DNA from: Escherichia coli O157:H7
Lineage (GTDB): Bacteria > Pseudomonadota > Gammaproteobacteria > Enterobacterales > Enterobacteriaceae
Reading direction: 5' to 3' (one strand)
Assembly (NCBI RefSeq): GCF_013167455.1
Contig: NZ_CP038328.1
DNA: 64,000 bases
In this document: piece by piece, positions 11,460 to 35,015 of the stretch
How the letters are laid out: the number at the start of each line of letters is the position of its first letter
Numbering within the stretch: the first letter of the stretch is position 1
Notes under the pieces: model-generated
Seen by the model: only the letters and a program-made list of their open reading frames with translations
Told to the model about the DNA's origin: nothing
Databases searched by the model: none
Position numbers and translations under genes: made by a program

Positions 11460-11722
11460 ATATTGCCGGATAAATTAAACGCCTCTGTCAGTAATGATGG
11501 GGGCGTTTTTATTTTGCGAGCAGCATTCCTGATTTTAAACGTGAACGCCGCTGGAAGAATTATCAGGTATAGAATGGCGTCGGGTGCTTGAGGCTGTCTG
11601 GCGTTAAGCATTCGCGAGGTTCCAGATGGACAAAAGCCCCAGGCGATATTTCTATCAACCTGAGGCTCGCGTTCGAACGTAGCAATTCGGATGTTAGTCT
11701 CTTCTTTGCAGGGAGGCAAGAC

Positions 11723-11875
11723 ATGCTAACAAAATATGCCCTTGTGGCAATCATAGTACTGTGTTGTACAGTACTGGGATTCACGCTCATGGTAGGCGAC
11801 TCGTTATGTGAGTTGAGTATCAGAGAGCGTGGTATGGAGTTTAAGGCAGTTCTCGCTTACGAATCGAAGAAGTAG
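11723..11875 (+). CDS. Hok/Gef-family type I toxin (small membrane peptide), hokX-like position
   Basis: 50-aa [53 protein letters not shown]; Hok-like TM segment plus SLCE...AYE motif; GC stem-loop follows. Confidence 0.7.
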
Positions 11876-12066: not shown

Positions 12067-14766
12067 ATGCGTAAATATCCTTTAAGTTTACTGAAGGATA
12101 AAAATATTGTGACTTTCTTTGATTTCTGGGGAAAAACCCGACGTGGCGAGAAAGAGGGTGGCGACGGCTATCACCTTCTTTGCTGGCATTCGCTGGATGT
12201 GGCCGCAATGGGCTATTTAATGGTTAAAAGAAATTGCTTCGGGCTGGCTGATTACTTTCGTCAATTAGGGATTTCTGACAAGGAACAGGCGGCTCAATTT
12301 TTCGCTTGGTTGCTGTGCTGGCACGATATTGGAAAATTTGCCCGCTCTTTTCAGCAACTTTACCTGGCCCCTGAACTCAAGATTCCGGAAGGTTCCAGAA
12401 AGAATTACGAAAAGATCTCTCATTCAACGCTGGGTTACTGGCTGTGGAATTATTATTTAAGTGAATGTGAGGAGTTGCTTCCTTCATCTTCACTCTCTTC
12501 TCGTAAACTTACACGTGTAATAGAGATGTGGATGTCCATAACTACCGGGCATCATGGTCGACCACCTGACCGTATTGATGAGCTGGATAATTTTCTGCCT
12601 GAAGACAAAGCTGCCGCGCGAGATTTTCTCCTTGAAATCAAGGCACTGTTTCCGCTCATAGAGATTCCCACATTCTGGGATGATGACGAGGGCGTTGAAC
12701 TTTTAAAACAACTTTCCTGGTATATCTCTGCAACAGTCGTACTCGCAGACTGGACGGGTTCGTCAACGCGATTTTTTCCACGCGTCGCACACCCAATGGA
12801 TATTAAAGATTACTGGCAGAAAACTTTAGTTCAGGCTCAAAACGCCTTAACCGTCTTTCCTCCAAAAGCAGAAACCGCACCTTTCACCGGAATTAATACG
12901 CTGTTTCCTTTTATTGAGCACCCGACACCATTACAGCAAAAGGTACTGGATCTGGATATCAGCCAGCCAGGGCCACAGTTATTTATTCTGGAAGACGTGA
13001 CTGGCGCAGGTAAAACAGAAGCGGCGCTTATCCTGGCGCACAGGTTGATGGCTGCGAGGAAAGCACAGGGTTTGTTTTTTGGCCTGCCAACAATGGCAAC
13101 GGCCAATGCCATGTACGATCGGCTGGTCAAAACCTGGCTTGCTTTCTATTCGCCAGAGTCCCGCCCCAGCTTGGTGCTGGCACACAGTGCCCGCACATTA
13201 ATGGACCGCTTCAATGAATCACTCTGGTCCGGTGATTTAGTCGGGTCAGAAGAACCGGATGAACAAACATTCAGTCAGGGATGTGCGGCCTGGTTTGCCA
13301 ACAGTAACAAGAAGGCGCTACTGGCTGAAATTGGCGTCGGCACGCTGGATCAGGCGATGATGGCAGTGATGCCGTTTAAACATAATAATCTGCGGCTTCT
13401 GGGGTTGAGTAACAAAATCCTGCTGGCTGATGAGATCCATGCCTGTGATGCTTACATGTCGTGCATTCTTGAAGGGCTGATCGAGCGGCAGGCGCGTGGC
13501 GGAAACAGCGTCATTTTGCTTTCTGCTACGTTATCCCAACAGCAGCGCGACAAACTCGTCGCCGCCTTTGCGCGTGGCACAGAGGGCCAGCAAGAAGCTC
13601 CGTTCCTTGAAAAGGATGATTACCCCTGGCTGACGCATGTCACGAAATCCGATGTGAACTCACACCGGGTAGCGACGCGCAAAGACGTTGAGCGTAGCGT
13701 CAGCGTGGGTTGGCTTCATAGTGAACAAGAGAGTATTGCGCGTATCGAATCGGCGGTAAGTCAGGGAAAATGCATCGCCTGGATCCGGAATTCTGTCGAT
13801 GACGCTATTAAGGTTCATCGTCAGCTGCTTGCCCGCGGCGTCATTCCCGCTTCCAGCCTTTCACTCTTTCATAGCCGCTTTGCTTTTAGCGATCGCCAGC
13901 GAATTGAAATGGAGACGCTGGCACGCTTTGGTAAAGAAGACGGTTCACAGCGTGCCGGAAAAGTCCTCATTTGTACTCAGGTCTTAGAGCAGAGCGTTGA
14001 TTGTGACCTGGACGAAATGATCTCCGACCTGGCCCCTGTTGATTTGCTGATTCAGCGAGCGGGGCGATTACAGCGGCATATCCGCGATATTAATGGTCAG
14101 TTAAAGCGTGACGGAAAAGACGAGCGTTCCCCTCCTGAATTGCTGATTCTGGCCCCCGTCTGGGACGACGCTCCTGGTGACGAATGGTTCGGCAGTGCCA
14201 TGCGTAACAGTGCATATGTCTATCCCGATCATGGACGAATCTGGCTGACGCAGCGTGTACTGCGTGAGCAAGGCGCTATTCAAATGCCACACGCAGCCCG
14301 CCTTCTTATTGAATCAGTCTACGGTGAGGACGTGGTAATGCCGGAAGGATTTGCCCGCAGCGAGCAGGAGCAAGTGGGCAAATATTACTGCGATCGCGCA
14401 ATGGCTAAAAAGTTTGTCCTGAACTTCAAGCCTGGCTATGCCGCCAATATCAACGATTACCTTCCGGAAAAGCTGTCGACACGTCTGGCTGAGGAATCTG
14501 TTTCCCTGTGGCTGGCTACCTGTATTGCCGGTGTGGTGAAGCCTTATGCCACCGGTGCTCACGCATGGGAAATGAGCGTTGTCAGAGTGCGTCGAAGCTG
14601 GTGGAAAAAACATCGGGATGAGTTTTCTTTACTGGAAGGGGAAGCGTTCAGGCAGTGGTGCATTGAACAGCGGCAAGATCCGGAAATGGCAAACGTGATT
14701 TTAGTCACTGATGACGAAAGTTGCGGGTATTCGGCCAGGGAGGGATTGATTGGCAAGGTTGATTGA
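12067..14766 (+). CDS. cas3: Cas3 HD nuclease/helicase (type I-E)
   Basis: 899-aa ORF; HD motif (LLCWHDIGKF), Walker A (GAGKTEAA), DEIH; alternative GTG start at 12109 possible. Confidence 0.9.
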   Translation: MRKYPLSLLKDKNIVTFFDFWGKTRRGEKEGGDGYHLLCWHSLDVAAMGYLMVKRNCFGLADYFRQLGISDKEQAAQFFAWLLCWHDIGKFARSFQQLYLAPELKIPEGSRKNYEKISHSTLGYWLWNYYLSECEELLPSSSLSSRKLTRVIEMWMSITTGHHGRPPDRIDELDNFLPEDKAAARDFLLEIKALFPLIEIPTFWDDDEGVELLKQLSWYISATVVLADWTGSSTRFFPRVAHPMDIKDYWQKTLVQAQNALTVFPPKAETAPFTGINTLFPFIEHPTPLQQKVLDLDISQPGPQLFILEDVTGAGKTEAALILAHRLMAARKAQGLFFGLPTMATANAMYDRLVKTWLAFYSPESRPSLVLAHSARTLMDRFNESLWSGDLVGSEEPDEQTFSQGCAAWFANSNKKALLAEIGVGTLDQAMMAVMPFKHNNLRLLGLSNKILLADEIHACDAYMSCILEGLIERQARGGNSVILLSATLSQQQRDKLVAAFARGTEGQQEAPFLEKDDYPWLTHVTKSDVNSHRVATRKDVERSVSVGWLHSEQESIARIESAVSQGKCIAWIRNSVDDAIKVHRQLLARGVIPASSLSLFHSRFAFSDRQRIEMETLARFGKEDGSQRAGKVLICTQVLEQSVDCDLDEMISDLAPVDLLIQRAGRLQRHIRDINGQLKRDGKDERSPPELLILAPVWDDAPGDEWFGSAMRNSAYVYPDHGRIWLTQRVLREQGAIQMPHAARLLIESVYGEDVVMPEGFARSEQEQVGKYYCDRAMAKKFVLNFKPGYAANINDYLPEKLSTRLAEESVSLWLATCIAGVVKPYATGAHAWEMSVVRVRRSWWKKHRDEFSLLEGEAFRQWCIEQRQDPEMANVILVTDDESCGYSAREGLIGKVD

Positions 14767-14863
14767 GATACCTGCGACAGGACTCTCTGAATAGTTGATA
14801 CACCGAAAAGGATGGAATGATGGACAACCGACCAGGGATGGTCTTTTTTACGAGAGGATACAT

Positions 14864-16426
14864 ATGAACTCGTTTTCACTTCTGACAACCCCGTGGTTGC
14901 CCGTTCGTTTTAAAGACGGAACAACAGGCAAGCTGGCGCCAGTCGATCTGGCGGATGAAAATGTTGTCGATATCGCTGCGCCGCGGGCAGATCTCCAGGG
15001 GGCGGCATGGCAGTTTTTGCTGGGGTTACTACAAAGCAGTTTCGCGCCAAAAGATTATCGTCGTTGGGATGATATCTGGGAAGACGGGCTGGAAGCTGAA
15101 AAGCTACGGGAAGCATTGCTGTCATTAGAACACCCTTTCCAGTTTGGCCCAGATTCACCTTCATTTATGCAGGATTTCGAGGTGCTCATGGGCGATAAAG
15201 TTCAGGTCGCTTCGCTACTGCCTGAGATTCCCGGCGCTCAAACAACGAAGTTTAATAAAGACCACTTTATTAAGCGTGGCGTGACTGAACACGTATGCTC
15301 TCATTGTTCTGCGTTAGCTCTGTTCTCCCTACAGTTAAATGCGCCGTCAGGTGGCAAAGGCTATCGCACCGGTTTACGCGGCGGTGGGCCGATGACGACT
15401 CTGATTGAATTGCAGGAGTATCAGGGTAATCAACAAGCCCCCTTGTGGCGCAAACTGTGGCTCAACGTGATGCCGCAGGATGAAGCCGACTTACCGCTAC
15501 CCAAAAAATTTGACGATCTGGTTTTCCCCTGGCTTGGCCCGACGCGTACCAGCGAACTGGCCGGTGCGGTGGTAACCGATGATCAGGTCAATAAACTCCA
15601 GGCGTACTGGGGAATGCCGCGGCGTATTCGTATTGATTTTAATACCACGACAGTCGGCAACTGCGATATTTGCGGTGAGCAGAGTGACGCGCTTCTGAGT
15701 TTGATGACTACCAAAAATTACGGTGCGAATTATGCCATGTGGCAGCATCCCTTAACGCCTTACCGTGTACCACTTAAAGAGGGCGGTGAGTTTTACTCCG
15801 TTAAACCACAACCGGGCGGTTTAATCTGGCGCGACTGGTTAGGCCTTATCGAAACGGGTAAGTCAGAAAACAATACGGAACTTCCCGCGCTGGTGGTGAA
15901 ACTCTTTAATGCCAGCAGTCTGAAACAGGCAAAAGTGGGCCTGTGGGGATTTGGTTATGATTTCGACAACATGAAAGCGCGCTGTTGGTACGAACACCAT
16001 TTCCCGCTGCTGCTCAATAAAAAAGAAGGCCAGATACCGAAGCTGCGGCTGGCTGCGCAAACGGCTTCACGGATTCTGAGTCTGTTACGGAGTGCATTGA
16101 AAGAAGCATGGTTCTCCGATCCAAAAGGTGCAAGGGGTGATTTCAGTTTTGTGGATATCGACTTCTGGAACAAAACTCAGCATCGCTTCCTGAGGTTAGT
16201 GCGCCAAATTGAAGAAGGTCAGGATGCGGATGAATTACTCGGCAAATGGCAAAAGGAAATTTGGTTATTCGCACGTCAGGATTTTGACGAGCGTGTATTC
16301 ACCAATCCTTATGAGCCCGTTGATTTGGAACGCGTCATGACCGCGCGCAAGAAATATTTTACAACATCGGCGGAGAAGCAAAGTGCTAAAGCCGCCAGGG
16401 AGAAAAAGCAGGAGGCTGCTGAATGA
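14864..16426 (+). CDS. casA: Cascade large subunit Cse1/CasA
   Basis: ORF 14795..16426; ATG 14864 after GAGAGGA; first gene after cas3. Confidence 0.85.
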   Translation: MNSFSLLTTPWLPVRFKDGTTGKLAPVDLADENVVDIAAPRADLQGAAWQFLLGLLQSSFAPKDYRRWDDIWEDGLEAEKLREALLSLEHPFQFGPDSPSFMQDFEVLMGDKVQVASLLPEIPGAQTTKFNKDHFIKRGVTEHVCSHCSALALFSLQLNAPSGGKGYRTGLRGGGPMTTLIELQEYQGNQQAPLWRKLWLNVMPQDEADLPLPKKFDDLVFPWLGPTRTSELAGAVVTDDQVNKLQAYWGMPRRIRIDFNTTTVGNCDICGEQSDALLSLMTTKNYGANYAMWQHPLTPYRVPLKEGGEFYSVKPQPGGLIWRDWLGLIETGKSENNTELPALVVKLFNASSLKQAKVGLWGFGYDFDNMKARCWYEHHFPLLLNKKEGQIPKLRLAAQTASRILSLLRSALKEAWFSDPKGARGDFSFVDIDFWNKTQHRFLRLVRQIEEGQDADELLGKWQKEIWLFARQDFDERVFTNPYEPVDLERVMTARKKYFTTSAEKQSAKAAREKKQEAAE

Positions 16427-16959
16427 GTATTGTAAAAGAGGAGCACAAAGCCACGCTGCGCAAATGGCATGAGGAATTGCAGGAGAAACGCGGCGAACGT
16501 GCCAGTCTGCGGCGTAGTACGACGGTTAATGATGTTTGTCTGACGGATGGATTTCGCCTGTTTCTGAAGAACAGACAAATAAAGTGGCAGGATGAACCTG
16601 AATGGCGTATTACCGCACTGGCGCTGATAGCCGCACTTAGCGCTAATGTTAAAGCCATTGATGAACGGCTGCCTTTTGCTGCGCAGCTGGCGGCGGTAAT
16701 GTCAAAGGGGCGTTTTACTCGCCTGTCGGCAGTAAAAACACCGGATGAATTACTGCGCCAGTTACGCCGCGTAGTCAGATTATTAAACGGTTCCGTTAAT
16801 CTTGACTCTCTGGCAGAGGGTGTCTTCCGCTGGTGCCAGGAGAGCGACGATCTGCTCAATCATCACCGCCGTCATCAGCGGCCAACCGAATTTATCCGTA
16901 TCCGCTGGGCGCTGGAATATTACCAGGCTGGCGACGTCGATAACGAACAAAATCAATAA
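16423..16959 (+). CDS. casB: Cascade small subunit Cse2/CasB
   Basis: 178-aa ORF; ATGA overlap with casA. Confidence 0.8.
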   Translation: MSIVKEEHKATLRKWHEELQEKRGERASLRRSTTVNDVCLTDGFRLFLKNRQIKWQDEPEWRITALALIAALSANVKAIDERLPFAAQLAAVMSKGRFTRLSAVKTPDELLRQLRRVVRLLNGSVNLDSLAEGVFRWCQESDDLLNHHRRHQRPTEFIRIRWALEYYQAGDVDNEQNQ

Positions 16960-16970
16960 AGGACTATCTC

Positions 16971-18026
16971 ATGACGACATTTATTCAGCTTCATTTGTTA
17001 ACCGCTTACCCTGCAGCCAACCTTAACCGTGATGACACCGGAGCGCCGAAAACCGTGGTCCTGGGTGGAGCAACGCGACTGCGCGTTTCCTCGCAAAGTC
17101 TGAAACGTGCGTGGCGCACTTCTGCACTTTTTGAACAGGCACTGGCGGGCCATATTGGTATTCGCAGTGGGCGTATTGCGCGTGAGGCGGCAACTATCCT
17201 GATTGAGAAAGGCATCGAAGAGAAAAAAGCCATCGAATGGGCGGCAAAAATTGCGGATTATCTTGGGAAAGCTAAAAACGACAAAAAACCAAAAGATCCG
17301 CTCACTAACGCCGAAACTGAACAATTAGTCCATATCAGCCCGGCAGAATTTGACGCCGTAAAAGCGCTGGCCCATCAACTGGCCGAAGAAAAGCGCGCGC
17401 CAAAAGAGGAAGATCTCGCTTTGTTACGTAAAGATCGCATGGCAGTAGATATCGCTATGTTTGGTCGTATGCTGGCGAATAAACCCGAATTTAATGTTGA
17501 AGCCGCCTGCCAGGTCGCGCATGCATTTGGTGTCAGTGAAACGATTGTCGAAGATGATTTTTTCACCGCCGTTGATGATTTGCGCCAGGCTTCTGAAGAT
17601 GCCGGTGCCGGGCATCTTGGTGAAACCGGATTCGGTTCTGCGCTGTTCTACACCTATATCTGCATCGATAAAGATCTGCTGGTCGAAAACCTCGGCGGTG
17701 ACGAAGCGTTAGCTAATCAGACCTTGCGCGCCTTTACGGAAGCCGCACTTAAAGTCTCCCCAACCGGCAAACAGAACAGCTTTGCCAGCCGTGCCTACGC
17801 CTCCTGGGCGCTGGCAGAAAAAGGCACCGAACAACCACGTTCTCTGGCGGCGGCTTTCTATGAACCCATTAATGGCACCCGGCAGTTAGATGTGGCGGTG
17901 CAGCGTATTACAACGCTTCGCGAAAATATGAATACGGTCTATGAACAGAAGACCGAATGCGCAAGCTTTGACGTGATGAACAAACAGGGAAGCATGAAGG
18001 ACGTGCTGGACTTTATCTGCGCGTAA
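16971..18026 (+). CDS. casC: Cascade backbone Cas7/CasC
   Basis: 351-aa ORF; operon position. Confidence 0.85.
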   Translation: MTTFIQLHLLTAYPAANLNRDDTGAPKTVVLGGATRLRVSSQSLKRAWRTSALFEQALAGHIGIRSGRIAREAATILIEKGIEEKKAIEWAAKIADYLGKAKNDKKPKDPLTNAETEQLVHISPAEFDAVKALAHQLAEEKRAPKEEDLALLRKDRMAVDIAMFGRMLANKPEFNVEAACQVAHAFGVSETIVEDDFFTAVDDLRQASEDAGAGHLGETGFGSALFYTYICIDKDLLVENLGGDEALANQTLRAFTEAALKVSPTGKQNSFASRAYASWALAEKGTEQPRSLAAAFYEPINGTRQLDVAVQRITTLRENMNTVYEQKTECASFDVMNKQGSMKDVLDFICA

Positions 18027-18036
18027 GGGGCGGCTA

Positions 18037-18783
18037 ATGAGCCAATATTTGATTTTTCAGCTTCATGGGCCAATGGCATCCTGGGGCGTCGATGCCCCCG
18101 GCGAAGTGCGTCATACCCATGAACTGCCTTCGCGCTCAGCATTGCTGGGGCTGCTGGCTGCCGGGGTAGGGATTCGGCGTGATGATACCGAACGATTAAA
18201 CGCGTTTAACCGCCACTATTCACTGGTGGTTTGCGCCAGCCGTAACCCGCGCTGGGCACGGGATTATCACACGGTCCAGATGCCAAAAGAGGTGCGTAAA
18301 GCGCGTTATTTCAGCCGTCGCGAAGAGTTGAGCGCCCCTGATCTTCTGAGCGCGATTATCTCCCGGCGCGACTACTACACCGATGCCTGGTGGATGGTGG
18401 CGGTGGCAACAACCCCCGATGCGCCTTACAGCCTTGAACAGTTGCAGGACGGTTTACGTCATCCGGTTTTTCCGCTTTATCTGGGGCGAAAAAGTCATCC
18501 GCTGGCGTTACCACTTGCGCCGTTACTGCTCGAAGGCAACGCGTCTGATGTCTTACGTAACGCATACCAACAGTATCAGGATAGTTTCCGCGAACTGAAA
18601 GTCTCACTCCCGAAACTTCAGGATGAATGCTGGTGGGAAGGGGAACACGACGGCCTGGTCGCGAGCAAAATATTACGTCGCCGGGATGTTCCTTTAAATC
18701 GTCAGCAGTGGCTGTTTGGGGAACGCACCATCAATCAGGGGCCGTGGCTCAGCAAGGAGGAACCATGTACCTCTCAAGAATAA
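18037..18783 (+). CDS. casD: Cas5/CasD
   Basis: 248-aa ORF; operon position. Confidence 0.8.
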   Translation: MSQYLIFQLHGPMASWGVDAPGEVRHTHELPSRSALLGLLAAGVGIRRDDTERLNAFNRHYSLVVCASRNPRWARDYHTVQMPKEVRKARYFSRREELSAPDLLSAIISRRDYYTDAWWMVAVATTPDAPYSLEQLQDGLRHPVFPLYLGRKSHPLALPLAPLLLEGNASDVLRNAYQQYQDSFRELKVSLPKLQDECWWEGEHDGLVASKILRRRDVPLNRQQWLFGERTINQGPWLSKEEPCTSQE

Positions 18784-19411
18784 CCTTACATACCGGCCAG
18801 CTTTCGCCTGCGCAGTTGCTGCATTTGGTGGATCGCGGGGAATATGTGATGCATCAGTGGCTGTGGGATCTCTTCCCTGGCGGCAAAGAAAGGCAATTTC
18901 TTTATCGTCGGGAAGAACTCCAGGGCGCGTTTCGCTTTTTTGTACTGTCGCAGGAACGCCCGGCGGAAAGTGAAACGTTCACCATCGAATGCCGGTCATT
19001 TGTGCCCGAGCTGCGTACCGGACAACAACTTTGTTTCAACCTGCGGGCGAATCCAACAATCTGTAAAGCGGGCAAGCGCCACGATCTGCTGATGGAGGCG
19101 AAACGGCAGGTGAGGGGGCAGGCGGAAGGAAGTGATGTCTGGTTGCATCAACAACAGGCGGCGCTGGACTGGCTGGCAGCGCAGGGGGAGAGAAGCGGTT
19201 TTACACTGCTGGATACCTCGGTTGATGCCTACCGACAACAGCAACTGCGGCGGGAAAACTCCCGGCAACTGATCCAGTTCAGTAGCGTGGATTATACGGG
19301 GATGCTTACGGTCACCGATCCCGGGTTATTTCTGCAACGTCTCAGTCAGGGGTATGGCAAAAGCCGCGCGTTCGGCTGTGGTCTGATGCTGATCAAACCC
19401 GGAGCAGAGGT

Positions 19412-19415
<4 letters not shown>
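18765..19415 (+). CDS. casE: Cas6e/CasE crRNA endoribonuclease
   Basis: ORF 18627..19415; ATG 18765 after AAGGAGG; 216 aa. Confidence 0.85.
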
Positions 19416-20625
<1,210 letters not shown>

Positions 20626-20720
20626 GTTATGTGTTCTTTAAAAATAAGGAAATGTTTGAATTTAGTTGGTAGATTGTTGATGTGGAATAAATTTGTTTAA
20701 AAACAGATATGTATGCTTAG
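20626..20720 (+). promoter_or_regulatory. CRISPR leader (AT-rich)
   Basis: 95-bp AT-rich stretch between cas2 stop and first repeat. Confidence 0.7.
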
Positions 20721-28378: not shown

Positions 28379-29740
<1,362 letters not shown>

Positions 29741-29879
29741 AACGTGAGGAAATACCTGGATTTTTCCTGGTTATTTTGCCGCAGGTCAGCGTATCGTGAA
29801 CATCTTTTCCAGTGTTCAGTATGGTGCCTTGCACGGTAATTATGTCACTGGTTATTAACCAATTTTTCCTGGGGGATAA

Positions 29880-31019
29880 ATGAGCGCGGGAAGCCCAAAA
29901 TTCACCGTTCGCCGCATTGCGGCTTTGTCACTGGTTTCGCTATGGCTGGCAGGCTGTTCTGACACTTCAAATCCACCGGCACCGGTCAGCTCCGTTAATG
30001 GCAATGCGCCTGCACATACCAATTCTGGTATGTTGATTACGCCGCCGCCGAAAATGGGGACGACGTCTACAGCGCAGCAACCGCAAATTCAGCCGGTGCA
30101 GCAGCCACAAATTCAGGCTACTCAACAACCGCAAATCCAGCCAGTGCAGCCAGTAGCTCAGCAGCCGGTACAGATGGAAAACGGACGCATCGTCTATAAC
30201 CGTCAGTATGGGAACATTCCGAAAGGCAGTTATAGCGGCAGTACCTATACCGTGAAAAAAGGCGACACGCTTTTCTATATCGCCTGGATTACTGGCAACG
30301 ATTTCCGTGACCTTGCTCAGCGCAACAATATTCAGGCACCATACGCGCTGAACGTCGGTCAGACCTTACAGGTGGGTAATGCTTCCGGTACGCCAATCAC
30401 TGGCGGAAATGCCATTACCCAGGCCGACGCAGCAGAGCAAGGAGTTGTGATCAAGCCTGCACAAAATTCCACCGTTGCTGTTGCGTCGCAACCGACAATT
30501 ACGTATTCTGAGTCTTCGGGTGAACAGAGTGCTAACAAAATGTTGCCGAACAACAAGCCAACTGCGACCACGGTCACAGCGCCTGTAACGGTACCAACAG
30601 CAAGCACAACCGAGCCGACTGTCAGCAGTACATCAACCAGTACGCCTATCTCCACCTGGCGCTGGCCGACTGAGGGCAAAGTGATCGAAACCTTTGGCGC
30701 TTCTGAGGGGGGCAACAAGGGGATTGATATCGCAGGCAGCAAAGGACAGGCAATTATCGCGACCGCAGATGGCCGTGTTGTTTATGCCGGTAACGCGCTG
30801 CGCGGCTACGGTAATCTGATTATCATCAAACATAATGATGATTACCTGAGTGCCTACGCCCATAACGACACAATGCTGGTCCGGGAACAACAAGAAGTGA
30901 AGGCGGGGCAAAAAATAGCAACCATGGGTAGCACCGGAACCAGTTCAACACGCTTGCATTTTGAAATTCGTTACAAGGGGAAATCCGTAAACCCGCTGCG
31001 TTATTTGCCGCAGCGATAA
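29880..31019 (+). CDS. nlpD: lipoprotein NlpD (LysM, degenerate M23 peptidase)
   Basis: 379-aa ORF; lipobox LAGCS; PQIQ repeat tract. Confidence 0.9.
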
Positions 31020-31081
31020 ATCGGCGGAACCAGGCTTTTGCTTGAATGTTCCGTCAAGGGATCACGGGTAGGAGCCACCTT

Positions 31082-32074
31082 ATGAGTCAGAATACGCTGA
31101 AAGTTCATGATTTAAATGAAGATGCGGAATTTGATGAGAACGGAGTTGAGGTTTTTGACGAAAAGGCCTTAGTAGAAGAGGAACCCAGTGATAACGATTT
31201 GGCCGAAGAGGAACTGTTATCGCAGGGAGCCACACAGCGTGTGTTGGACGCGACTCAGCTTTACCTTGGTGAGATTGGTTATTCACCACTGTTAACGGCC
31301 GAAGAAGAAGTTTATTTTGCGCGTCGCGCACTGCGTGGAGATGTCGCCTCTCGCCGCCGGATGATCGAGAGTAACTTGCGTCTGGTGGTAAAAATTGCCC
31401 GCCGTTATGGCAATCGTGGTCTGGCGTTGCTGGACCTTATCGAAGAGGGCAACCTGGGGCTGATCCGTGCGGTAGAGAAGTTTGACCCGGAACGTGGTTT
31501 CCGCTTCTCAACATACGCAACCTGGTGGATTCGCCAGACGATTGAACGGGCGATTATGAACCAAACCCGTACTATTCGTTTGCCGATTCACATCGTAAAG
31601 GAGCTGAACGTTTACCTGCGAACAGCACGTGAGTTGTCCCATAAGCTGGACCATGAACCAAGTGCGGAAGAGATCGCAGAGCAACTGGATAAGCCAGTTG
31701 ATGACGTCAGCCGTATGCTTCGTCTTAACGAGCGCATTACCTCGGTAGACACCCCGCTGGGTGGTGATTCCGAAAAAGCGTTGCTGGACATCCTGGCCGA
31801 TGAAAAAGAGAACGGTCCGGAAGATACCACGCAAGATGACGATATGAAGCAGAGCATCGTCAAATGGCTGTTCGAGCTGAACGCCAAACAGCGTGAAGTA
31901 CTGGCACGTCGATTCGGTTTGCTGGGGTACGAAGCGGCAACACTGGAAGATGTAGGTCGTGAAATTGGCCTCACCCGTGAACGTGTTCGCCAGATTCAGG
32001 TTGAAGGCCTGCGCCGTTTGCGCGAAATCCTGCAAACGCAGGGGCTGAATATCGAAGCGCTGTTCCGCGAGTAA
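31082..32074 (+). CDS. rpoS: RNA polymerase sigma factor RpoS (sigma38)
   Basis: ORF 31046..32074; ATG 31082 ([14 protein letters not shown]) giving 330 aa; codon 33 GAG. Confidence 0.95.
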
Positions 32075-32090
32075 GTAAGCATCTGTCAGA

Positions 32091-32126
32091 AAGGCCAGTC
32101 TCAAGCGAGGCTGGCCTTTTTCTTTT
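32091..32126 (+). terminator. rho-independent terminator of rpoS
   Basis: aaaggccagtctcaagcgaggctggcc stem then TTTTTCTTTT. Confidence 0.85.
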
Positions 32127-32193
32127 GTTTGGGAAGCTTGTGTTTTTGTCGCCTGGATAAGACACGTCAGCGTCCTACCCGGCAATTTGCATC

Positions 32194-32634
32194 CTATGTG
32201 TTCATCATCTTGCGCACCAGCTGCACAAACAGCTCCTGCTCTTCTGCACTCAAACGCCCCAAAAATTCCTCATCCACGCTGTCACCAATCGGTATCGCCG
32301 CAGCAAGTATCTTTTCTCCTTCGGCAGTCAGCCAGACAAAGCGACGCCGCTTGTCAGCGGCATCATGTTCACGTCTGACTAAGCCACGATTCTCCATTCT
32401 TGCCAACATTTCTGCCAACGTTGCTTTGGTGCTGACTGCTGCTTCTATCAGTGCCACCTGTTCGATACCAGGCTTATCAGCAATGGCGCGCATCACCGCA
32501 TACTGTGGTTTGGTCAGGTCAGGTAACTCGTGCTGCCAGCGAGCCGTGTGCTGCTGAAAAAGCTGTCGTAACTGATGGAACGCTTTATTTCGTAACGTCA
32601 TGTAAACTCCGGGCAAACTATCTGCCGCTATCAT
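32194..32634 (-). CDS. MarR/SlyA-family transcriptional regulator
   Basis: 146-aa ORF (alternative start at 32601); winged-helix-type sequence; divergent from decarboxylase genes. Confidence 0.75.
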   Translation of the reverse strand: MIAADSLPGVYMTLRNKAFHQLRQLFQQHTARWQHELPDLTKPQYAVMRAIADKPGIEQVALIEAAVSTKATLAEMLARMENRGLVRREHDAADKRRRFVWLTAEGEKILAAAIPIGDSVDEEFLGRLSAEEQELFVQLVRKMMNT

Positions 32635-32747: not shown

Positions 32748-33341
32748 ATGAAACTGATCGTCGGGATGACAGGGGCTACCGGTGCGCCTCTTGGTGTGGC
32801 ATTACTGCAAGCGCTGCGGGAGATGCCGAATGTCGAGACTCATCTGGTGATGTCGAAGTGGGCGAAAACCACCATTGAACTGGAAACGCCTTACAGCGCC
32901 CGCGATGTTGCTGCCCTCGCTGACTTCAGCCATAACCCGGCGGATCAGGCGGCGACCATCTCCTCAGGTTCCTTTCGTACAGACGGCATGATCGTTATTC
33001 CGTGCAGTATGAAAACGCTCGCCGGTATCCGCGCTGGTTACGCTGATGGCCTGGTAGGGCGCGCGGCGGACGTCGTGCTTAAAGAAGGCCGCAAACTGGT
33101 GCTGGTGCCGCGTGAAATGCCGCTTAGCACCATCCATCTCGAAAATATGCTCGCACTTTCACGCATGGGCGTGGCGATGGTGCCGCCGATGCCTGCCTTT
33201 TATAACCATCCCGAAACGGTAGATGACATTGTCCACCACGTGGTAGCCCGCGTGCTGGATCAATTTGGCCTTGAACATCCCTACGCCAGGCGCTGGCAAG
33301 GATTGCCGCAGGCCCGGAATTTTTCTCAGGAGAATGAATAA
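32748..33341 (+). CDS. UbiX-type flavin prenyltransferase (Pad1-like)
   Basis: 197-aa ORF; MKLIVGMTGATGA N-terminus. Confidence 0.85.
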   Translation: MKLIVGMTGATGAPLGVALLQALREMPNVETHLVMSKWAKTTIELETPYSARDVAALADFSHNPADQAATISSGSFRTDGMIVIPCSMKTLAGIRAGYADGLVGRAADVVLKEGRKLVLVPREMPLSTIHLENMLALSRMGVAMVPPMPAFYNHPETVDDIVHHVVARVLDQFGLEHPYARRWQGLPQARNFSQENE

Positions 33342-34768
33342 TGGCATTTGATGATTTACGCAGCTTTTTACAGGCGCTTGATGACCACGGCCAGTTACTG
33401 AAAATCAGCGAAGAGGTGAACGCGGAACCGGATCTGGCTGCCGCTGCCAACGCCACCGGGCGTATCGGCGATGGTGCACCGGCGCTGTGGTTTGATAATA
33501 TTCGCGGTTTTACCGATGCCCGCGTGGCGATGAATACCATCGGTTCCTGGCAGAACCACGCGATTTCCTTGGGCCTGCCGCCAAACACCCCGGTTAAAAA
33601 ACAGATTGATGAGTTTATCCGCCGCTGGGATAACTTCCCGATCGCCCCGGAGCGCCGCGCCAATCCAGCCTGGGCGCAGAACACCGTCGATGGTGACGAG
33701 ATTAATCTGTTCGATATCCTGCCGCTGTTTCGTTTAAACGACGGTGATGGCGGTTTCTATCTCGACAAAGCGTGCGTGGTTTCCCGCGATCCGCTCGACC
33801 CGGATAACTTCGGCAAGCAGAACGTCGGTATCTACCGCATGGAAGTGAAGGGCAAGCGTAAGCTCGGCCTGCAACCGGTGCCGATGCACGATATCGCCCT
33901 GCATCTGCATAAAGCGGAAGAGCGCGGTGAAGATCTGCCGATTGCCATCACCCTGGGTAACGATCCGATCATCACCCTTATGGGCGCCACGCCGCTGAAA
34001 TACGATCAGTCTGAGTATGAAATGGCAGGCGCGCTGCGCGAAAGCCCGTACCCGATCGCCACCGCGCCATTGACTGGTTTTGATGTGCCGTGGGGTTCAG
34101 AAGTGATCCTCGAAGGGGTTATCGAAAGCCGCAAACGCGAAATCGAAGGGCCGTTCGGTGAGTTTACCGGGCACTACTCCGGCGGGCGTAACATGACCGT
34201 GGTGCGTATCGATAAAGTCTCTTACCGCACCAGGCCGATTTTCGAATCGCTGTACCTCGGCATGCCGTGGACCGAAATCGACTACCTGATGGGGCCAGCC
34301 ACCTGTGTGCCGCTGTATCAACAACTGAAAGCCGAGTTCCCGGAAGTGCAGGCGGTAAACGCCATGTACACCCACGGCCTGCTGGCGATTATCTCCACCA
34401 AAAAACGCTACGGCGGCTTTGCCCGCGCGGTGGGCCTGCGTGCGATGACCACGCCGCACGGTCTGGGCTACGTAAAGATGGTGATTATGGTCGATGAAGA
34501 CGTTGACCCGTTCAACCTGCCGCAGGTGATGTGGGCGCTCTCCTCGAAAGTAAATCCGGCAGGGGATTTGGTGCAGTTGCCGAATATGTCCGTGCTGGAA
34601 CTCGACCCTGGCTCAAGCCCGGCGGGGATCACCGACAAGCTGATTATCGACGCCACCACGCCTGTCGCCCCGGACAACCGTGGTCACTACAGCCAGCCGG
34701 TGGTGGATTTGCCGGAAACCAAAGCCTGGGCTGAAAAACTGACCGCTATGCTGGCCGCACGTAAATAA
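33341..34768 (+). CDS. UbiD-family (prFMN-dependent) decarboxylase, phenolic acid decarboxylase C-subunit-like
   Basis: 475-aa ORF overlapping UbiX-like stop. Confidence 0.85.
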   Translation: MAFDDLRSFLQALDDHGQLLKISEEVNAEPDLAAAANATGRIGDGAPALWFDNIRGFTDARVAMNTIGSWQNHAISLGLPPNTPVKKQIDEFIRRWDNFPIAPERRANPAWAQNTVDGDEINLFDILPLFRLNDGDGGFYLDKACVVSRDPLDPDNFGKQNVGIYRMEVKGKRKLGLQPVPMHDIALHLHKAEERGEDLPIAITLGNDPIITLMGATPLKYDQSEYEMAGALRESPYPIATAPLTGFDVPWGSEVILEGVIESRKREIEGPFGEFTGHYSGGRNMTVVRIDKVSYRTRPIFESLYLGMPWTEIDYLMGPATCVPLYQQLKAEFPEVQAVNAMYTHGLLAIISTKKRYGGFARAVGLRAMTTPHGLGYVKMVIMVDEDVDPFNLPQVMWALSSKVNPAGDLVQLPNMSVLELDPGSSPAGITDKLIIDATTPVAPDNRGHYSQPVVDLPETKAWAEKLTAMLAARK

Positions 34769-34778
34769 GGAGAACAAG

Positions 34779-35015
34779 ATGATTTGTCCACGTTGTGCCG
34801 ATGAACAGATTGAAGTGATGGCGAAATCGCCGGTGAAAGATGTCTGGACGGTATATCAGTGCCAGCATTGCCTTTATACCTGGCGCGATACCGAACCGCT
34901 GCGCCGTACCAGCCGCGAACATTATCCCGAAGCGTTCCGCATGACGCAGAAAGATATTGATGACGCGCCAATGGTGCCGAGCATCCCGCCGCTGCTGGCG
35001 GAAGGTAAGCGCTAA
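34779..35015 (+). CDS. small zinc-ribbon subunit of phenolic acid decarboxylase (D-subunit-like)
   Basis: 78-aa ORF with CPRC...CQHC pairs directly after the UbiD-like gene. Confidence 0.7.
   Translation: MICPRCADEQIEVMAKSPVKDVWTVYQCQHCLYTWRDTEPLRRTSREHYPEAFRMTQKDIDDAPMVPSIPPLLAEGKR

Follow-up and report, generated by a model that had tools for sequence, protein, structure and literature searches.

The nlpD-internal rpoS promoter and its 567-nt leader in a chromosome segment of Escherichia coli O157:H7 type

The stretch of DNA analysed here, 64,000 nucleotides in length and referred to throughout as the window, carries nlpD and rpoS, the latter coding for the stress sigma factor, one behind the other on the + strand. 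The nlpD coding sequence spans 29880-31019 and encodes a murein hydrolase activator of 379 aa, annotated as nlpD in both K-12 and O157. Records differ in the start they assign to it: the K-12 record uses the ATG equivalent to 29880 (379 aa), and the O157 record, annotated by PGAP, begins 45 nt later at 29925 (364 aa). Based on the list of open reading frames and on the sequence, rpoS was assigned to 31082-32074 (+ strand), starting with an ATG at 31082 from which the protein begins MSQNTLKV. The gene is intact, encodes 330 aa without a premature stop, and is followed by an intrinsic terminator, which a sequence scan revealed as a strong hairpin with a T-run at 32088-32121 (+ strand). The mechanical reading frame is longer (342 aa) since it opens at an in-frame ATG at 31046, 36 nt upstream of 31082. 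We rejected this codon as the rpoS start because it lies inside a variable hairpin, has no Shine-Dalgarno sequence and is not kept in other species; unlike it, ATG 31082 is preceded by AGGAG at a distance of 7 nt. At rpoS codon 33 (31178) the window has GAG (Glu), as against CAG (Gln) in MG1655. The 3' 539 nt of nlpD have a second role, since they contain the rpoS promoter together with the greater part of its leader.

On megablast searching, the region 30300-31200 was present in 5,420 of 5,426 complete E. coli genomes, in 5,241 of these 5,420 records at an identity of at least 99%. Among the matches listed, those at 100% were O157/O157:H7 strains with annotated nlpD and rpoS, and the window is, judging from its sequence, a chromosome segment of E. 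coli O157:H7 type. The gene order in one such genome is cysH, hok, type I-E cas, iap, cysDNC, ftsB, ispDF, truD, surE, pcm, nlpD, rpoS, a MarR-family gene, hydroxyarylic acid decarboxylase BCD, pphB and mutS. Collinearity of the window with K-12 stops at 32121, just past the rpoS terminator. At this point K-12 has ygbN, whereas the window has a MarR-family regulator (32194-32634, - strand), with hydroxyarylic acid decarboxylase subunits B, C and D at 32748-35015 and then pphB and mutS; the segment 32121-35100 is the known variable rpoS-mutS region in its O157 form. Elsewhere in the window, a complete type I-E CRISPR-Cas operon (cas3, casA-E, cas1e, cas2e) occupies about 12100-20700 according to the annotation of a genome identical to it over 30300-31200, and at 11582-11738 there is a sok antitoxin RNA (Rfam RF01794, 105 bits), adjoining a Hok/Gef family gene between cysH and cas3. 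This was the sole match at the Rfam gathering level across the whole window.

Two published sources put the main rpoS start site inside nlpD, at a distance of 567 nt from the start codon on its upstream side (PMC8545128; PMC10948607). The K-12 promoter rpoSp and its 567-nt 5' UTR were mapped by Lange, Fischer and Hengge-Aronis in 1995, as cited in PMC10948607, and our statements on the start site and on motifs draw on such secondary open-access sources. We aligned the window with K-12 MG1655 (rpoS ATG at 2867551) and observed no gaps from 30133 to 32120 and 11 substitutions in all. Since the alignment is ungapped, the published distance of 567 nt puts the expected +1 at 30515 on the + strand, a placement by homology. 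The rpoS 5' leader accordingly covers 30515-31081 (+ strand), which is exactly 567 nt: 505 nt at the end of nlpD plus 62 nt of intergenic sequence. A preliminary description of the locus had proposed a leader of roughly 560 nt and had given 30515-31081 as the interval holding both promoter and leader, relying for these coordinates on the conserved gene order and not on any motif. The length agrees with the K-12 alignment and the literature value, and the interval proved exact for the leader, but the promoter hexamers lie just upstream and outside it.

Only four substitutions distinguish the leader from that of K-12, located at 30776, 30788, 30899 and 30920 (-306, -294, -183 and -162 from the rpoS start codon). 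All four are synonymous changes at third codon positions of nlpD; promoter, Hfq motifs, small-RNA pairing site and ribosome site are left untouched, and the sequences of window and K-12 coincide throughout from -161 to +96. A regulatory change specific to O157 at -183 or -162 was considered and rejected, because the bases of the window at both positions are those found in about 80% of 5,417 E. coli genomes, and it is K-12 that has the rarer form.

The published lengths are not uniform, since a '576-bp 5' UTR of rpoS' has been cloned in an O157:H7 Sakai background (PMC7547250), as against the 567 nt of the leader in the window. Taken literally, this would move the +1 about 9 nt further upstream. 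Such a start, at 30506, would however sit within the conserved TATTCT at 30504-30509, two other sources give 567 nt (PMC8545128, PMC10948607), and the figure of 576 may reflect a cloning boundary or transposed digits. We consider the longer leader extremely improbable and retain the start at 30515. The sequence offered no evidence for a start site elsewhere, 30515 being itself assigned by homology.

For comparison across species, rpoS loci were gathered using a degenerate DNA pattern for the RpoS N-terminus, with one genome per species. We kept 89 Enterobacterales species in which the 3' end of nlpD could be used, giving 90 sequences together with the window; the NlpD proteins were aligned and the codons threaded back. 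Two hits (L072 and L090) on contigs labelled Pelosinus and Patescibacteria, without an nlpD-like ORF upstream, were left out and are probably chance matches or contaminated bins. Also left out were L089 (Kluyvera) and L092 (Citrobacter amalonaticus), where the nlpD 3' end is seemingly frameshifted or truncated. The synonymous measure takes only codons whose amino acid is already conserved.

The promoter consists of a -35 hexamer TTGCGT (30481-30486) and a -10 hexamer TATTCT (30504-30509) on the + strand, with a spacer of 17 bp between them and 5 bases separating TATTCT from 30515. Both hexamers are identical to those of K-12 and lie inside the coding sequence 29880-31019, in agreement with the earlier claim that the main rpoS promoter is within nlpD. 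With a 7/12 match to the sigma-70 consensus the promoter is weak, and it is because of this weakness that a strict consensus scan of 29700-32200 found no promoter. In a lenient scan nine other nlpD sites scored the same, so that the motif alone, being one of ten with this score, does not single out the promoter. That the site is more than a chance match follows from its identity to the mapped K-12 sequence and from the freezing of its synonymous sites across 90 species. Across these Enterobacterales the -10 was TATTCT in 82 and TATCCT in 8, and the TTG of the -35 was invariant in 90/90. The codons ATT ACG TAT TCT (30498-30509) displayed zero synonymous variation, though the NlpD linker amino acids there vary, and the same absence of synonymous variation was observed for the valine codon GTT at 30480.

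These data also bear on the view that in this strain most rpoS mRNA does not come from the nlpD-internal promoter but from promoters upstream of nlpD, as a bicistronic nlpD-rpoS message, or from starts near the rpoS ATG. Its weakness by consensus, as one of ten equal matches in nlpD, would fit this view, as would the low-level bicistronic transcript and the four further start sites near the start codon that have been noted, the conditions of use of which are not known (PMC10948607). On the other hand, the promoter is identical to that of K-12, where it has been described as the most important one under stress (PMC10948607), and a -10 and a -35 TTG frozen at synonymous sites in 90 species are not expected of an unused site. 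It is thus very unlikely that the main source of rpoS lies elsewhere than in the nlpD-internal promoter. Upstream of this promoter, we read from the sequence a weak candidate CRP site at 30443-30464 (+ strand), which has a TGTGA half-site at 30446-30450 and would be centred at about -61.5 from the +1. The half-site is identical to K-12 and is kept in only 10 of the 90 species. A CRP site in PrpoS has been reported, its position not being given (PMC10948607).

A second stretch of nlpD showed the same kind of constraint. Normalised synonymous entropy was 0.16 over the 13 codons of 30957-30995, compared with 0.64 over 74 M23-domain codons (30657-30950), a drop that was significant in a Mann-Whitney test (p = 2e-6) and in which sliding values came down to 0.03-0.14. 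The amino acids encoded here vary freely in their codons elsewhere in the M23 domain, where the entropy was 0.48-0.99 for Lys, 0.48-0.98 for Tyr and 0.44-0.87 for Arg, as against 0 in this stretch. Selection beyond that on the protein thus acts on two short stretches of nlpD, namely the -10/-35 elements and the region where the small RNAs are known to pair. The case illustrates neatly how coding and regulatory constraints can overlap, and adds no new biology.

The small-RNA pairing hub, which is at the same time the 5' arm of the inhibitory stem, was located at 30955-30989 (about -128 to -93, + strand), where it also codes for NlpD residues. Its sequence is that of K-12 and hardly varies among 72 Enterobacterales species, so the pairing region has not been lost from the window. 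We scanned the single-stranded seed of each K-12 small RNA along the leader in tiles and compared the result with 60 shuffles. For DsrA the best leader site was 30962-30986 (-120 to -96), with an energy of -26.4 kcal/mol that none of the 60 shuffles equalled; the second-best site reached only -14.9 kcal/mol. The expected pairing of DsrA with the leader is therefore well placed, since the best site of its seed is the hub. RprA likewise had its best site at 30955-30989 (-24.1 kcal/mol), although the margin was slight, 2 of 60 shuffles being as good. The free scan for ArcZ gave a best site outside the hub, at 30660-30681 (-422 to -401; -22.4 kcal/mol; 21 of 60 shuffles as good), and restricting it to the hub yielded 30954-30986 at -20.7 kcal/mol. 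Of the further proposal that RprA and ArcZ pair here, the part that stands is that both can pair at the hub, but the energy scan does not single the hub out for ArcZ. Duplexes of full-length small RNAs with the full-length leader (RNAduplex) were huge and loop-ridden and no better than shuffles.

The hub being identical to K-12, any pairing that operates in K-12 is available in the window; RprA and ArcZ pairing is established in K-12, whose target sequence is that of the window. The small-RNA genes themselves lie outside the window and were found in 98.4-99.9% of 5426 complete E. coli genomes (dsrA in 5338, rprA in 5423, arcZ in 5416), and dsrA and rprA are 100% identical in O157:H7 PV15-279. 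The phage-derived StxS uses the same rpoS seed region in EHEC Sakai, and published compensatory-mutation experiments aim at the hub region (PMC7547250).

The motifs named for Hfq in this leader are '(AAN)4 and A6' (PMC3753642). Both are present on the + strand of the window: the (AAN)4 distal-face motif, AACAACAAGAAG, at 30886-30897 (-196 to -185) and the A6 motif at 30910-30915 (-172 to -167). Among the 90 species, 82 retain an (ARN)4 motif and only 32 an A-run of at least 5. The presence of the two motifs is consistent with the leader being a target of Hfq, as had been suggested, the binding itself being taken from the literature.

We folded the segment from -150 to +30 (30932-31111). Its minimum-energy structure was -54.3 kcal/mol (z = -2.2) and paired 30958-30988 (-124 to -94) with 31064-31093 (-18 to +12). 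The AUG was almost completely buried in this predicted fold (unpaired probability 0.02), and the AGGAG at 31070-31074 was placed in an internal loop between helices. We take the predicted stem to be the published inhibitory stem, whose 3' arm would extend over 31058-31093 (+ strand) and include the Shine-Dalgarno AGGAG (31070-31074) and the AUG (31082-31084). The signal was confined to the 3' 180 nt, as the whole leader (597 nt folded) was not unusually stable (z = -1.06). When the DsrA site was blocked in a constrained fold, the AUG was not freed but formed new pairs with codons downstream, and its probability of being unpaired was no higher; the model is too crude to show activation, and we count this outcome on neither side. 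A search of 30300-31300 with Rfam covariance models gave no match at an E-value of up to 1; no Rfam family covers the leader, and the negative result therefore carries no weight against it.

Alignment of 72 species revealed 93-99.8% of cells paired in the stem helices, with both arms invariant and no compensatory change. Because the stem is kept by invariance, such data cannot separate a structural constraint from those of small-RNA pairing, coding or ribosome binding. Two local hairpins behaved differently. A small conserved hairpin, CGCUGC...GCAGCG, which the consensus fold places at the end of nlpD (30994-31015, + strand), had 97% of cells paired and changes on both sides in 2 pairs, and a variable hairpin in the intergenic region, enclosed by the two arms of the inhibitory stem (31023-31055, + strand, also from the consensus fold), had both-sided compensatory changes in 7 of its 8 pairs across the 72 species. 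The comparative data thus support the local hairpins as structures, and they are compatible with the long stem but do not prove it.

It could be argued that 30957-30995 is so highly conserved for the sake of the NlpD C-terminus alone, through constraint on protein coding or codon usage, and has no RNA function. The stretch does code for an invariant NlpD peptide, and neither arm of the inhibitory stem shows covariation, both of which would be expected on that reading. However, synonymous choices are frozen here while the same amino acids vary in their codons elsewhere in the domain, the frozen stretch coincides with the best site of the DsrA seed, and it is at this region that the compensatory-mutation experiments were aimed (PMC7547250). 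We give a purely coding explanation next to no probability, and regard the stretch as one that serves the RNA as well as the protein.

Taken as a whole, the feature is, we are highly confident, the well-characterised E. coli rpoSp with its 567-nt leader, the steps of the mechanism included. What the present analysis shows is the sequence features and their identity to K-12, the purifying selection on synonymous positions, the stem as predicted and the complementarity to DsrA; for the start site, the roles of Hfq and Rho and the activation in vivo we rely on the literature. RNA polymerase would start at the weak sigma-70-type promoter inside nlpD, at 30515 or within 1-2 bases of it, and transcription would proceed across the 505 nt that remain of nlpD and 62 nt of intergenic sequence to the rpoS AUG at 31082. 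The 3' 150 nt of the leader would fold over this codon: pairing of -124 to -94 with -18 to +12 is expected to lock the AUG and the Shine-Dalgarno flanks in a long imperfect stem, as a result of which basal translation would be low. Hfq would bind (AAN)4 and A6, about 70-110 nt upstream, and aid the pairing of DsrA, RprA or processed ArcZ with the 5' arm at 30955-30989; in Shiga-toxin phage lysogens StxS would pair with this arm likewise. Such pairing would free the ribosome site, stabilise the mRNA and counter premature termination by Rho. The rpoS leader is a classic case of translational activation by small RNAs, and both the observation and the interpretation offered in the preliminary description are confirmed as correct: this is a textbook arrangement, already known, from which the window does not depart.

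When compared with K-12 rpoSp, the promoter of the window has the same position, the same hexamers and the same 567-nt length, the hub, Hfq motifs, ribosome site and stem are identical, and there are no indels; the differences are those at -306, -294, -183 and -162 and at rpoS codon 33. The leader of EHEC O157:H7 Sakai (PMC7547250) is of the same lineage type, the window being 100% identical to O157 genomes over 30300-31200. In Sakai, one activating seed region is described for DsrA, RprA, ArcZ and StxS, the last of these encoded on Shiga-toxin prophages that are outside the window. With a full-length rpoS and an undamaged control region of the type usual in E. coli, regulation of RpoS in the source strain is expected to follow the K-12 and Sakai model. 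In Pseudomonas and Vibrio the arrangement is also nested, with a promoter inside nlpD and a long 5' UTR (PMC8545128, PMC11838912), but the leaders are only 55-62% identical and the E. coli small RNAs have no homologues there (PMC8545128). Those leaders are analogous to that of E. coli in layout, and the pairing hub is not common to them.

Premature Rho-dependent termination has been described in the rpoS leader (PMC6537650, PMC11331407). By composition, the part of the leader from 30535 to 30675 (+ strand) is C-rich and G-poor, with a C/G ratio of up to 1.9, and it is possible that this stretch acts as a Rho loading region.

The spacer between nlpD and rpoS was observed to vary in length among the species compared. 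It measures 103-217 nt in 14 of the 90 species (loci L078, L094, L107, L007, L062, L055, L068, L018, L111, L115, L116, L043, L049 and L064), as against 48-63 nt in the others. The genera with the long spacer are Raoultella, Klebsiella, Kosakonia, Phytobacter, Siccibacter, Pseudocitrobacter, Atlantibacter, Kluyvera, Pseudescherichia and some Enterobacter. The extra sequence lies inside the variable hairpin, the base of which (GGCAAAG...CTTTGCC) is kept together with the downstream AGGGATCACGGGTAGGAGCC. One might suppose that the hairpin at 31023-31055 is a lineage-specific regulatory module, either a docking site for a protein or a small RNA or a tuner of stem stability, and not a passive connector; we consider this doubtful. 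The expansion amounts to 40-155 nt in Klebsiella, Raoultella, Kosakonia, Siccibacter and other genera.
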